From contig JBIKLL010000077.1 of assembly GCA_044359815.1 (NCBI GenBank), forward strand, positions 1 to 12,578: 12,578 nt of DNA, read 5' to 3'. A program made the position numbers and the translations under genes. The notes beneath the pieces were generated by a model. It was not told the origin of the DNA. It saw only the letters and a program-made list of their open reading frames with translations, and ran no database searches. Source of the stretch: Pseudobdellovibrionaceae bacterium (GTDB lineage: Bacteria; Bdellovibrionota; Bdellovibrionia; Bdellovibrionales; Bdellovibrionaceae). Below are positions 5,896 through 11,958 of this stretch, piece by piece (position 1 is the stretch's first letter; every line of letters begins with the position of its first letter).

Positions 5896-6984
5896 ATGCT
5901 TGGAACAAAAATTGACCGCTACCTTTCAAAATTGTTTTTCGGATTTTTTATTGGTGGTTTATTGGTGTTTGTGACCTTGTTTTTGGCCGTCGACGCATTG
6001 TCGACAATGGTTTCATACCAAGGGGTGCCAGCCATTTCGTTCATCCAATATTATGCCTATCTGTTTCCAGACATCGTGTACAAGATGGTGCCAGTGGCCT
6101 GTGTGATTGCCACGGTTTTTACCCTATCAACAATCAACAAAACCAATGAACTGATCGCCCTGCAAAGTGTGGGTTTTAGTTTAGTCCGAGTTTGCTATCC
6201 CATAGTTTTTTGGATCTGTGTCCTGTGTTTTTTAAATTTATTTTTAAGCGATAGGGTGATTCCCAATTTCACCAAGATGAAAAATTTTATTTTTTATCAC
6301 GAAATTGCAAAAAACCCTTCGATGTTTTCGATAGTTAAAAATGAAAGGATTTGGTACAGGTCCCACGACAAAATTTTTAATATCAAAACACTGAATGAAA
6401 AGAGCAATAAAGCGCAGGGTTTGACGCTTTATTATTTTAACGAAAATTGGGATTTGATCCAGATGATGACGGCCACCGAGGTCGAAATCAAAGAAAGCAC
6501 CTGGGAGCTGATTAATGGATCGGTCACCATATTTACCGAGGATTCCAGCTTTCCGCAGACCAGCGAATTCAAAACAAAAACCATTCCCATCGAAAAAGAC
6601 ACCAAAGATTTAGCTTCTTCTGGCAACACCTCGGACATGCTGAGCATTGGTGAGCTTTATCATTTTATTAAAACCAATCGTGAGGCCGGTCTGGACACAG
6701 TCAGGTACGAAGTGGATTTTCATTCAAAATTTGGATTTGCCTTAGCTCCGTTTATTATGGGCTTGTTAGGAATTCCGTTTAGCGTGACCCGGGGTCGATC
6801 GGGCGGCTTAAAGCTGAATTTGAGTATATGCTTGGGGCTGATTTTGCTGTATTGGATCAGCTATTCGTCATCGATTACCTTGGGCAATTATCGACAGATA
6901 CCACCCATGCTATCGGCATGGCTTCCCAATCTGATCAACCTGGCTCTGGCCGTATTTCTGATCCGCAAAAAAATCCAAGTCTGA
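5896..6984 (+). CDS. lptG: LPS export ABC transporter permease, LptF/LptG family (probably LptG)
   Basis: IDRYL N-terminus, NELIALQSVGFSL motif, three TM helices, a periplasmic domain (IWYR..), three more TM helices, and a C-terminal LG....PPMLSAWLPN. Confidence 0.75.
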   Translation: MLGTKIDRYLSKLFFGFFIGGLLVFVTLFLAVDALSTMVSYQGVPAISFIQYYAYLFPDIVYKMVPVACVIATVFTLSTINKTNELIALQSVGFSLVRVCYPIVFWICVLCFLNLFLSDRVIPNFTKMKNFIFYHEIAKNPSMFSIVKNERIWYRSHDKIFNIKTLNEKSNKAQGLTLYYFNENWDLIQMMTATEVEIKESTWELINGSVTIFTEDSSFPQTSEFKTKTIPIEKDTKDLASSGNTSDMLSIGELYHFIKTNREAGLDTVRYEVDFHSKFGFALAPFIMGLLGIPFSVTRGRSGGLKLNLSICLGLILLYWISYSSSITLGNYRQIPPMLSAWLPNLINLALAVFLIRKKIQV

Positions 6985-6989
6985 ACCGA

Positions 6990-7395
6990 GCCTGCGGTTA
7001 TTATGAACTTTAAAAAATATTTCTATGATTTTACACCTTGAGAATACATTTGCGAGCGCGACGGTTAATTTATCGCCGCATATCTCGTGATGCGTAAATG
7101 CAAAGATAATTTTTTTCACTATTTTTAGACACTCGCTAACGGCCGCGGGCTCATCTCTCGTATTGAGTCATTTAGACTAATCACTTTTACGATTAATAAA
7201 TTATCTTAAACCTGATTAGTCTAAATGACTCAACACCAGATATGCCCCGCGCGCTCGCTGAATGTGTCTAAAAACAGTAAAAACAAATTATCTTTCCATT
7301 TATGCAATACGAGAGATGAGCTTGCGGCCGTTAGCAAGTATTCTCAAGGTGTAAAATCATAGAAATATTTTTTAAAGTTCATAATAACCCCAGGC
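6990..7395. repeat. Nested multi-arm inverted-repeat (fold-back) element
   Basis: Arm A 6990-7047 / 7338-7395 (57/58 complementary); arm B 7091-7132 / 7264-7306 (38/43); arm C 7163-7183 / 7213-7233 (21/21). Motif Y 7131-7165 / 7305-7339 (32/35, inverted); motif X ~7046-7092 / 7231-7265 (inverted, variable middle). Confidence 0.95.
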
Positions 7396-7451
7396 AAGTG
7401 GGCCGATTGTTGATGTTTTTTTAAATCGGGCTGGCTCCTGCGGGCGTAATC

Positions 7452-7460
7452 TGATAGGAT
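7452..7460 (+). promoter_or_regulatory. Extended -10 element (TGnTAGGAT) or Shine-Dalgarno-like AGGA upstream of def
   Basis: tgataggat at 7452-7460, followed by 6 nt and ATG 7467. Confidence 0.4.
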
Positions 7461-7466
7461 GCCCCT

Positions 7467-8090
7467 ATGATTTTAGAGGTATTAAAATTTCCAGATCCCA
7501 GGCTCCGCGAAGTTTCTAAAGAGGTCACTCAGTTTGATCAGAAACTCAAAACCCTTTCTGAGAATATGCTTGAAACCATGTACGGTGAAAACGGTGTGGG
7601 ATTAGCGGCGCCACAGGTTGGCGAGCTGATCAGAATGCTGGTGATCGACACTAGGCCGCGGGATACGGGCGGCAGGTATGAGGAAAATCAGCTTGAGCCA
7701 TTGGAATCTATGGTTCAACAACCTTTAGTTATTATTAATCCCGAAATAGTCTCTCACGATGGTAAAACTACCTACGATGAAGGCTGTCTGAGCGTGCCTT
7801 CGTTTTATGAAACTGTAGACAGATTTAAAGTCATTGAACTTAAATATTTTGATGTCACGGGCAAGGAATGCCGGATACAAACTGACGGTCTGTTGTCGAT
7901 TTGCATTCAACATGAAATGGATCATTTGGAAGGCACTTTGTTTATCGATCATTTGAGCTTTTTGAAAAGCAACAAAATTAAAAATCACATTAAAAAATAC
8001 GGATATCCACCAAAAGGTTCTCGCTCACGGGGCGATGGAAAAAACGCAGAAACCGAGGACGAGTTAGAACCAGTGGAAGGAAAAAAGTAA
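7467..8090 (+). CDS. def: Peptide deformylase
   Basis: GVGLAAPQVG, EGCLS and QHEMDH (HExxH) motifs; directly upstream of fmt. Confidence 0.98.
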   Translation: MILEVLKFPDPRLREVSKEVTQFDQKLKTLSENMLETMYGENGVGLAAPQVGELIRMLVIDTRPRDTGGRYEENQLEPLESMVQQPLVIINPEIVSHDGKTTYDEGCLSVPSFYETVDRFKVIELKYFDVTGKECRIQTDGLLSICIQHEMDHLEGTLFIDHLSFLKSNKIKNHIKKYGYPPKGSRSRGDGKNAETEDELEPVEGKK

Positions 8091-8093
8091 TCA

Positions 8094-9041
8094 GTGAGTC
8101 GGATCAGGACTGTTTTTCTTGGGACTCCCGATTTTGCTGTGACTTGTCTGCAAGCCATGCTCGAGGACGATCATTTTGACATTGTAGGTGTGGTCACACA
8201 ACCTGACAGACCTTCTGGTCGTAAGATGCAGCTGACAAAAAGCCCTGTGCGGATATTGGCTGAAAAACACGGTCTTAGGATTTTAACACCAGAAAAAATG
8301 AATTTACCAGAAAACCAATTAGAAGTGGAAAAATGGGGAGCCGAAGTCGCCGTGGTCGTGGCCTTTGGACAGATTTTAAACACTCAATTTTTAAATATGT
8401 TCACCCACGGCTGCGTGAATGTTCACGCAAGCTTATTGCCACGTTGGCGGGGAGCCGCTCCGATTCAAAGGGCCATCGAGGCCGGTGACAAAGTCACAGG
8501 CGTGGCTTTGCAAAAAATGGTCAAAGAATTAGATGCCGGTGATGTTTTGGGTGTTAAAAAAATCCCAATCACTCAGGATATGAATTCCAAAGAGCTTCAT
8601 GATGCTTTGGCTCCACTGGGGGCAGAGCTTCTTAAGGTCGATCTGATGGATTATGTCCGCGGCAATTTAACACCTGAAAAACAAGACCCACAGTTTGTTA
8701 CCTACGCTAAAAAAATTGATAAGGCAGAAAGCCTGATCGCTTGGGATAGCGCTGAAAAGGTTCACAACAAAGTGCGAGCCTTTGTGTGGGGGCCTGGGAC
8801 TTATATGGTTTGGAATCAACTCAAGGTGAAAGTTCATAAAACTAAAGTCATTGATACCAATACGACTCCAATGAAATCTGATTCTATCGGCAGCATTATC
8901 AAGGTTTCCGATGAGGGCATCGATATACAAACTGGCCTTGGCATTGTGCGCCTGCTTGAATTGCAACCGGAATCACGCAATAAAATGTATGCAACTGAAT
9001 TTATCAAAGGCTACGGAATTAAAGCCGGTGATAAAGTTTAG
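8094..9041 (+). CDS. fmt: Methionyl-tRNA formyltransferase
   Basis: FLGTPDFA, VVTQPDRPSGR, VVAFGQIL, NVHASLLPRWRGAAPIQRAI and LDAGD; GTG start. Confidence 0.98.
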   Translation: MSRIRTVFLGTPDFAVTCLQAMLEDDHFDIVGVVTQPDRPSGRKMQLTKSPVRILAEKHGLRILTPEKMNLPENQLEVEKWGAEVAVVVAFGQILNTQFLNMFTHGCVNVHASLLPRWRGAAPIQRAIEAGDKVTGVALQKMVKELDAGDVLGVKKIPITQDMNSKELHDALAPLGAELLKVDLMDYVRGNLTPEKQDPQFVTYAKKIDKAESLIAWDSAEKVHNKVRAFVWGPGTYMVWNQLKVKVHKTKVIDTNTTPMKSDSIGSIIKVSDEGIDIQTGLGIVRLLELQPESRNKMYATEFIKGYGIKAGDKV

Positions 9042-10817: not shown

Positions 10818-10859
10818 AGGAAAATTCGAAAAAGTAAAAATCAAGGGCAAAGAAAAAGG

Positions 10860-10905
10860 CAATGAAAACGACAATGAAAACGACAATGAAAACGACAATG
10901 AAAAC
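10860..10905 (+). repeat. 12-bp tandem repeat (caatgaaaacga) x3.8
   Basis: Perfect units at 10860, 10872 and 10884, and a 10-nt partial unit at 10896. Gives in-frame ATGs at 10862, 10874, 10886 and 10898 (MKTT repeats). Confidence 0.95.
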
Positions 10906-10927
10906 AAAAAATGAAAAGAGCACGAAA

Positions 10928-11485
10928 ATGAAATATTCCCGAAAACCCCAAAATGTTATCGCTAGATTGTTGTTTTTTGTTGTGGCGTTTATCGCAGGGC
11001 TTTTGACCTTTGAAACTGTTCAAGCAAATTCGATGGATACATTGATGTCAAAACATGTTCCTAATTTTAAAAATGGCACAGTGATTTGTTTTGAGAATTC
11101 GGTAGTGGCCTTGCCTAAATTAGCGATCAGATTTCAGGACAACAAAATTCAAAAAATCGCTTTAGCTATGGGCGAAATCGAAATGGGATTTGTGGACCAC
11201 GAGGAAGGGTCTGTAATTTTGCTTGGTGAAGGTTGGTCCAGGGGCGGCACATTGGGAATGAAGTTTTTTATCCAAATCGACGAACCCAGCAGCGTTTTAA
11301 ATAATCAAATCAGAAATAACTTTATTTCGGCCCGTATGCGAATCAGCCATCCAGCTCAGAAAATGGTTCATTATTTAAATGGCAATGAAAAGAAATATAA
11401 AATGTATTGCAACTCTTATTCAGCCAGCGAAACAGTCGCCATCGAATACGATGATGGTTATGAAAAAACCGAGCTTAAGTTTTAG
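10928..11485 (+). CDS. Hypothetical secreted protein
   Basis: ORF 10862-11485. From ATG 10928 it reads as a signal peptide MKYSRK...LLFFVVAFIAGLLTFETVQA|N. No family recognised. The start could be any of the upstream repeat ATGs. Confidence 0.65.
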   Translation: MKYSRKPQNVIARLLFFVVAFIAGLLTFETVQANSMDTLMSKHVPNFKNGTVICFENSVVALPKLAIRFQDNKIQKIALAMGEIEMGFVDHEEGSVILLGEGWSRGGTLGMKFFIQIDEPSSVLNNQIRNNFISARMRISHPAQKMVHYLNGNEKKYKMYCNSYSASETVAIEYDDGYEKTELKF

Positions 11486-11758: not shown

Positions 11759-11958
11759 CAGGTTTACCTGACCTAGCAAAAGTTTTAGTTTTATATTTGT
11801 AAAAAGAAATCTCATTTTTAATTTAAGGTGGCACAGCTCCTGCTTCTCCGCTCGAGCGGTGCTCCCGTCGTCCAGGCTCCGCGGAGGCCACCTTAAATTA
11901 AAAATGAGATTTCTTTTTACAAATATAAAATTAAAAATTTTGTTGGGCAGTGAGCCTG
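11759..11958 (+). repeat. Long inverted-repeat hairpin with a GC-rich structured core
   Basis: 11789-11832 is perfectly complementary to 11887-11930 (44 bp). Pairing extends to 11759/11958 with 5 G-T wobbles, 1 G-A mismatch and 2 single-nt bulges. The 54-nt core 11833-11886 contains palindromes ccgctcgagcgg (11848-11859) and ctccgcggag (11877-11886). Confidence 0.95.

Follow-up and report, generated by a model that had tools for sequence, protein, structure and literature searches.

The window, as we call the 12,578-nt stretch of DNA analysed here (contig C92 of the source genome G000 of a predatory-type lake bacterium, an assembly of 2.95 Mb in 125 contigs that is 91% complete), carries between lptG and def a 406-nt nested fold-back sequence in which two GC-rich motifs, X and Y, are set between three AT-rich stems, A, B and C. 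The two halves of this sequence are not mirror copies, since X faces Y', which raises the question of what kind of element occupies the site and how such an architecture is made, spread and maintained. The complementarity that an earlier note had reported for the outer arms was recovered in full, while the counts for the inner stems proved slightly high: B and B' do pair, in 34 of 41 columns (36/45 with wider bounds) and not 38/43, and C pairs with C' at 20 of 21 positions (7162-7182 against 7214-7234) and not at all 21. The left arm indeed reads X then Y and the reverse complement of the right arm Y then X, the Y copies being 91% alike over 35 nt, and DNA and RNA folds agree in placing X opposite Y' and Y opposite X' in the rod. 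As either DNA or RNA, a 426-nt stretch collapses into this one rod with a z of about -23, none of 100 shuffles being as stable, and no ORF of 80 aa or longer lies inside the element (Table 1). Consensus motifs of hammerhead, hairpin and twister ribozyme types were compared informally, by eye, and none fitted.

Table 1. Parts of the element between lptG and def and its two neighbouring genes, in window coordinates.
Feature	Position	Strand	Remark or basis
lptG/lptF-type permease gene, upstream neighbour (context only)	5896..6984	+	PF03739
Outer arm A, AT-rich	6990..7047	+	starts 5 nt past the lptG stop; 57/58 complementary to A'
X, left half of outer core	7048..7091	+	'long' subtype, in which a small hairpin is inserted at about 7058-7079
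B	7092..7130	+	start of the outer unit's tip stem fused with the shortened arm of the inner unit; type-1 doublet junction; 34/41 columns pair with B'
Y' half of inner core (+ strand reading, Y)	7131..7165	-	91% alike to outer Y'
C stem, tip loop and C'	7162..7234	.	20/21 pair; 30/36 including the tip
X half of inner core (+ strand reading, X')	7231..7265	-	pairing and strand fold energies
B'	7265..7304	+	pairing with B
Y', right half of outer core	7305..7339	+	pairing, 91% likeness to the inner copy, family comparison
Outer arm A'	7338..7395	+	57/58 with A
Decayed family end motif	7391..7405	-	sequence; kept in the window copy on the right side only
def, peptide deformylase, downstream neighbour (context only)	7467..8090	+	PF01327

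The element is one of many. G000 contains 130 X and 130 Y' matches in 93 clusters. Of these, 33 are complete doublets arranged as in the window, 14 are X..Y' singles, 36 are cut off by the end of a contig and 10 are degenerate (one of them probably a chance match); at least nine more singles carry a compact, more ancestral core. As the earlier note had anticipated, X and Y thus occur elsewhere with different stems, the same doublet layout standing at 33 loci with different flanks; its further claims, that X..Y' is a directional bipartite unit present twice (the outer on the + and the inner on the - strand) and that the whole is a nested non-autonomous repeat of REPIN-like kind, are borne out by these doublets and by the pairing of their stems. 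The basic unit is almost certainly arm-X-stem-Y'-arm and the doublet such a unit with a second, inverted one in its tip, and there is very little doubt that the window holds a nested doublet of a real repeat family. Doublet junctions fall into two unrelated types, 29 of type 1, to which the junction at B belongs, and 4 of type 2. Inner and outer units of type-1 doublets come from different subfamilies, and insertion of one unit into another is therefore favoured over a fold-back copy. In all 57 short-type cases the X and the Y' of a unit are of corresponding subtype; in the window, the outer X is of the long subtype found in 13 of the 33 outer units, the inner Y' is of the CCCG subtype and pairs with an inner X of GGGG type, and the C region is an AT-rich extension standing, at the homologous alignment position, in place of the short G-N-A capped tip of compact relatives.

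The compact cores of G000 (C10:1040, C14:12968, C26:9801, C33:133520, C68:9531, C85:18145, C99:15887, C113:5765 and C124:43801) form a subfamily with short tips and arms of its own, three copies of which adjoin an X/Y element or a member of a second hairpin family. This family 2 is present twice in the window (11772-11947, and 1-86 as a copy cut by the contig start) and has 29 motif matches in G000; its 61-nt arms, 93% complementary and resembling the A arms of the X/Y family, enclose a conserved GC-rich tip core. In all, 150 loci of G000 bear a perfect 20-nt inverted repeat within 520 nt, 42 of them outside the four families scored. The window also holds a 12-nt tandem repeat (10842-10933) that spans the start of an ORF without a Pfam match (10862-11485), giving it an MKTT-MKTT-MKTT leader; the true start is probably further in.

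Copies in G000 are intergenic, mostly just past stop codons and dispersed between ordinary genes; 44 of the 47 complete elements are flanked by an ORF on either side, and the two ORFs converge in 31/44 against 142/653 background gaps, on crude ORF calls. Terminal inverted repeats are present and a transposase gene is lacking, as in MITEs. Over 41 elements no direct target-site duplication was detected (mean longest shared flank word 3.12, against 3.12 for shuffled pairings), a comparison that a short duplication could escape because the arm ends are ragged. Two family patterns gave no matches in viral contigs. The lptG-def gap measures about 30-110 nt in four of the seven relatives with both genes in one locus, and none of the five gaps scanned in relatives contains a comparable repeat. 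Parts of the element were found at about 20-200 times the depth of the flanks in all four lake runs compared, out of 24 runs listed, and in none of the four did a joint skipping the element appear over 5900-9000, in contig-only data from which rare variants drop out. No RNA data set is among those 24 runs, which has no bearing on expression.

The arms are nearly perfect within a copy and variable between copies. Outer arms of G000, of median length 58 nt, are 97.8% alike within copies and 77% between them, the latter being also the mean that relates arm A, homologous to the other family arms, to its counterparts; 142 departures from the arm consensus occur on two arms against 31 on one. Arm mismatches have no strand bias (29 G-T, 25 A-C), and pairing in an RNA of one strand therefore fails to explain the upkeep of the arms. 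For 18 copies in the complete genome G279, likeness of the arms is about 99% inside a copy and 48% from one copy to another (46% when shuffled), while that of the core is 96%. The outer ends are the least conserved part of the G000 arm consensus, and an end motif found in 37 of 141 arms against 77 of 3000 background windows holds GTGG reading outward, with no foldable palindrome after it in the consensus; REP ends, for comparison, have a 5' GT(A/G)G tetranucleotide and then a short palindrome. Among the 46 typed units of G000, three have an inverted tip loop. Template switching is described as leaving changes on both sides of a stem, inverted loops and stems lengthened by copying of the reverse complement (PMC8794818), and the arms match all three; being a mutation process and no element, template switching accounts for the upkeep of the arms and not for spread or for conservation of the core. 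An element in G344 occupies a site empty in the congeners G342 and G343, and part of its 81-nt perfect arm mirrors the final 31 nt of a host gene whose C-terminus is conserved in three congeners. Of the proposal that the units are flanked by inverted and not direct duplications, the inverted part is thus upheld at this one site, and a direct target duplication was not found. Break repair driven by SbcCD was set aside as a discriminator: sbcD was not found in G000 (91% complete) and scores over cut-off in 1 of the 109 genomes of family f6, and its absence may permit long palindromes without discriminating, because carriers and non-carriers of the core are alike in this respect.

The core has a wider distribution. 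A motif search of 384 genomes of the order led to true homologues in G342 and G344, single pattern matches without arms in G109, G112 and G331 being judged chance. A covariance model built from 14 cores matched 15 of the 109 f6 genomes and 2 of 149 other genomes of G000's family, and a second model combined with a pattern search added G222 (family f2) and found, in two phylum samples (151 and 401 genomes), no core outside the order. Carriers therefore number about 19, in three families of the order Bdellovibrionales, with a patchy one to about 140 cores per genome; by eye, 28 of the 28 displayed matches sat between inverted arms. X and Y' are one covarying rod-shaped core: in 37 aligned cores 94% of the cells are paired and 9 of 15 pairs change on both sides, a covariation reached by none of 500 shuffles, slid partners giving at most 44%, although these figures lean toward structure because the structure itself was derived from the same sequences, many of them detected by a related model. 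An A.G mismatch flanked by two T-A pairs recurs in every one of the 37 cores. The X->Y' strand has 17 G-T cells against 3 A-C cells and is the more stable strand in 35/37 cores with DNA energies and 29/37 with RNA energies; for the inner unit of the window, DNA parameters give -43.6 kcal/mol on the - strand against -36.5 on the + strand. The candidate in which the Y..X' strand folds into local hairpins was dropped, as relatives show both wobbles and stability on the X->Y' strand, and the suggestion of an RNA rod folding in both polarities is unsupported because the core has one favoured folding strand. We infer that the core is a folded single-stranded DNA structure read by a putative protein; the replaced tip of the window's units and the weak replichore bias, both described below, count against this.

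Some cores are themselves interrupted. In L061 (G344:C23) and L064 (G342:C46) the interruption consists of other small GC-rich hairpin repeats with GCGAAGC loops, and the insert of L064 is also present beside element L045, such that other repeats target or join the core. L211 (G279:C1:1974762-1975210) and L212 (G279:C1:2228960-2229294) share homologous inserts, each some 110 nt long and situated in the X half, whose differences fall, by eye, mostly at would-be third codon positions; they may be a captured piece of coding sequence.

Y1 transposases are the candidate movers. The nine Y1 matches of G000 correspond to one 211-aa RAYT-like gene (NF047646 at 72.5 bits, against a cut-off of 80) and eight 203-aa paralogues, and none of the 46 Y1 or recombinase loci surveyed in several genomes has a scoring core next to it. 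The link of the family with HUH/RAYT enzymes that had been proposed stands by sequence match in relatives and falls for the RAYT-like gene of G000. In G279, 6/39 cores are capped by a string that occurs upstream of and right after the RAYT-like gene L166, which is also followed by a degenerate core, and 5/39 by the inverted repeat flanking a second RAYT-like gene, L176; a twelfth capped core (L216) was recognised by eye, and about 27-28 of the 39 have arms without a recognised transposase end. Three G342 elements (L047, L064 and L250) end in the inverted repeat of the RAYT-like genes L067/L076 of G342 and G344. Arms that begin with such repeats are known, then, from two genera besides that of G000. 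Among f6 genomes, a RAYT-like gene was found in 12 of 15 with the core and 37 of 94 without it (crossed by hand), a co-occurrence confounded by kinship and genome size; three core-positive genomes, including G272 with at least 23 cores, gave no RAYT-like match. The RAYT-like gene of G000 was rejected as current mover for having a separate repeat family of its own (about 45 of 56 motif matches, by eye, at loci distinct from the X/Y loci), which the X/Y ends resemble only loosely. The cognate enzyme of G000 would accordingly have been lost, have diverged or have escaped assembly. The 203-aa paralogues were also discarded, with no adjoining core and with kin in the core-negative G343.

Both kinds of Y1 gene in G000 have features of their own. 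The RAYT-like gene (L021, C8:9479-10290) has a short flanking inverted repeat that recurs at about 20 other loci, and its family of some 45 copies, mostly inverted pairs 100-380 nt apart, is apparently an ordinary, separate REPIN/TIRtron system. The eight Y1/HUH paralogues (L022-L029; C23:210-821, C48:48186-48797, C56:3005-3616, C47:11973-12584, C49:93340-93951, C100:633-1244, C125:2378-2989 and C8:23373-23984) are 85-93% identical to the C23 copy, with a conserved upstream stretch and no conserved downstream end. A tandem repeat of a different unit each time lies within 700 nt of 8/8 of them, against 32/150 background ORFs, and likewise near Y1 homologues in G344 and G305, which could mark an undescribed repeat-making Y1 element.

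Given these patterns, we favour, with a probability of about 0.58, spread of the family as single-stranded DNA by a RAYT/TIRYT-type Y1 transposase, coupled to upkeep in place by copying between arms and between copies. A hairpin with transposase ends and a core would have been copied to gene ends, and a unit of one subfamily would then have entered the tip of another, at least twice, such entry placing one core on each strand. In G000 the ends would later have decayed and the loci become fixed; from then on template switching between arms would keep them complementary, extend them into host DNA and sometimes flip loops or whole interiors, and ectopic gene conversion would swap interiors between loci. 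The protein recognising the core would meet it as folded single-stranded DNA.

A sister lineage recovered in a metagenome scan bears on the late steps of this scheme. Nine of its contigs have flanks 87-96% alike to those of G000, and eight map to assembled G000 sites, all occupied in both lineages (L096 was excluded, its site falling past the end of a G000 contig). When the sister arms are compared with 141 arms, the orthologous locus comes out closest in 6/8 cases; for interiors this holds in 0/8, two of them being too short to inform. All 7 loci comparable in this respect have interiors of different subtype in the two lineages, and the whole interior has the opposite orientation at 3/8, L097/C73 being counted as of the same orientation, with a deletion in G000 evident from the alignment. 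These swaps and flips come from short-read assemblies, in which mis-assembly through the repeat is possible: at C49 no perfect run between the G000 arms exceeds 29 nt and the sister left arm matches the G000 right arm, which brings that flip within reach of short-read assembly, and at C110 the perfect arm run is 51 nt. Within G000, arm and interior distances show no significant correlation (rho 0.11, p 0.12, 24 type-1 doublets). We read the interior changes as ectopic conversion plus occasional inversion, with no switch.

The strongest rival would dispense with end recognition, the core itself being mobile or self-spreading, entering the tips of palindromes already present (hairpins with transposase ends, further repeats or the core's own units) or mirror-copying its target into arms, and the RAYT ends belonging to its hosts. 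This is unlikely in our judgement, even if much of the above suits it: one core lies within arms bearing two different transposase ends and within mutually unrelated G279 arms, L213 (G279) is a core-less hairpin with the first, L166-type arm, in G000 similar arms carry the different tip core of family 2, self-nesting arose twice, the mirrored gene end of G344 stands at a site empty in congeners, and interiors differ at fixed loci. Against it, no recurrent mobile-type gene was found among 403 ORFs beside cores, where the largest clusters were spurious ORFs across the core itself, and no reverse transcriptase (PF00078) was found in G000, 91% complete; moreover, the G000 arms are clearly homologous between copies and even the unrelated G279 arms have, by eye, a stretch rich in G in common close to the core, as would suit old common descent. 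In its fullest and equally doubtful form, the core would be a hitch-hiking DNA module of about 80 nt, with a strand-specific single-stranded fold and a priming-like mini-hairpin cap, that colonises the hairpin tips of several transposase-ended repeats and of itself, mirror-copies its arms from local DNA and overwrites or flips copies between fixed sites, spreading by the copying of palindromes and not by the recognition of ends.

Quite improbable as well is a structured 3' UTR RNA selected by the host for protein binding, mRNA stability or aid to termination, the doublet providing each transcript with one core. The position after stop codons and between convergent genes, the covariation with G-U wobbles on one strand, the loci kept across lineages and the supply of one core to each strand by the doublet would all be expected of such an RNA. 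Yet where the neighbouring genes run in one direction, the favoured strand is antisense to them in most cases (11 vs 3 in G279, 8 vs 4 in other genomes and 2 vs 0 among G000 singles, on crude ORF calls), strand preference is cleaner with DNA than with RNA energies, and the number of cores varies widely among genomes. Rfam gave no match at gathering score for the window or for 11 loci with compact cores, and below it (window, E up to 10) sub-threshold matches only, mostly to generic miRNA-type hairpins. The tips point in the same direction. Loops of the form G-N(1-2)-A cap 36 of the 39 G279 cores and include GCA, GTA, GTTA, GCTA and GATA, beyond GNRA. Mini-hairpin loops of G-N-A type are described as exceptionally stable when made of DNA and far less stable as RNA, and DNA mini-hairpins such as GCGNAGC / GCGNNAGC as occurring at priming and promoter sites in single-stranded DNA, with phage and plasmid priming sites cited for loops that resemble the C-closed G-N-A or G-N-N-A tips of compact cores, including GAAA, GTTA and CCGAAGG (PMC13037366). 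The likeness is one of loop class only, and the units of the window, without a G-N-A tip, have replaced the capped tip. No replichore bias of significance was seen (24 vs 15 in G279, by hand count, and 23 vs 16 in G000).

A regulated switch, in which a site-specific recombinase would flip the interior at A/A' or B/B', is very improbable. It would account for the opposite orientation at three of eight orthologous loci and for the single, degenerate co-oriented copy at C22, and G000 does have two tyrosine recombinase genes; no core lies near either of these, the inner unit is flipped in 0/33 complete doublets, no promoter-like or terminator-like site was found within 6900-7500, and flips are seen at stems that are unrelated in sequence, among them tip stems of 20 nt, as fits generic template switching. 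The idea that inversion between B and B' would co-orient the units thus survives as rare fixed differences at every stem and not as a dedicated invertible switch. An assembly fold-back or amplification chimera, which the 36 of 93 clusters broken at contig ends and the lack of a lake-run contig spanning the whole element might have suggested, is scarcely credible in view of the same layout at 33 loci with locus-specific arms, its presence in the independent sister-lineage assembly, the depth in the four lake runs and the compact homologues in G279, a genome complete in a single contig.

The statement that the element fits no recognised class was too strong, since it works like a REPIN or a TIR repeat with the pattern of conservation reversed. 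Like REPINs with their RAYTs, the family is extragenic, multi-copy, hairpin-forming, non-coding, vertically kept and sometimes nested, with RAYT-like genes in most carrier genomes (PMC3116915, PMC5581495, PMC3686654, bioRxiv 10.1101/2021.07.10.451892). REPINs are described as having conserved ends around a variable spacer (bioRxiv 10.1101/2021.07.10.451892), whereas in the X/Y family it is the middle that is conserved and the arms that vary; its units measure 170-430 nt against about 100 for REPINs, the core is asymmetric and, unlike REPINs, covaries across three families, and in G000, at 91% completeness, the RAYT-like gene carries other ends and not the repeat that would flank a cognate RAYT. 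TIRtrons, RAYT-like genes flanked by terminal inverted repeats that form repeat families and occur elsewhere as dimers (PMC3733652, PMC6006769), are matched by the RAYT-like repeats capping some of the hairpins in G279, G342 and G344 (11/39 copies in G279 and three in G342), not by G000; the TIRtron descriptions consulted give no shared structured core between the TIRs and no mention of Bdellovibrio (PMC3733652, PMC6006769). The X/Y family differs in having one core common to two TIR families in one genome and in arms without TIR.

Two further kinds of element are also disfavoured: no cassette array of the integron attC type was matched, the copies being dispersed between ordinary genes with no core near the two tyrosine recombinase genes, and the reverse transcriptase expected of a retron or group II intron was, as said, not found in G000. 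ERIC, YPAL and bcr1 are among the bacterial MITEs and long palindromic repeats. Such repeats, of up to about 400 bp, have terminal inverted repeats, stable long stem-loops and no transposase gene (PMC3184786), in all of which the present element is similar; it differs in its undetected direct target duplication, its decayed ends and its copy-specific yet near-perfect arms. We have not filed it as a member of any of these classes because two REPIN features, conserved ends and a cognate RAYT, and the target duplication of MITEs fail in G000. A literature search of mostly open-access main texts found no description of this family in Bdellovibrionota, and the supplementary TIR/REP lists of PMC3733652 and PMC6006769 could hold these ends.

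What this analysis of sequences adds is the match to transposase ends, the comparison with the sister lineage, the empty site and the strand evidence. Copying and persistence of REPIN type are still argued from indirect evidence (PMC5581495). By reversing the REPIN pattern, the X/Y family separates the parts, such that transposase ends, self-correcting arms and conserved core can each be traced alone, and a single G279 core common to the ends of two RAYT-like genes allows a direct test of recognition by the enzyme. The arms, with their two-sided changes, loop flips and mirrored gene ends, provide a natural, many-copy bacterial record of template switching. If it were true that the core is a single-stranded DNA signal spreading without end recognition, it would represent a new mode of selfish spread.
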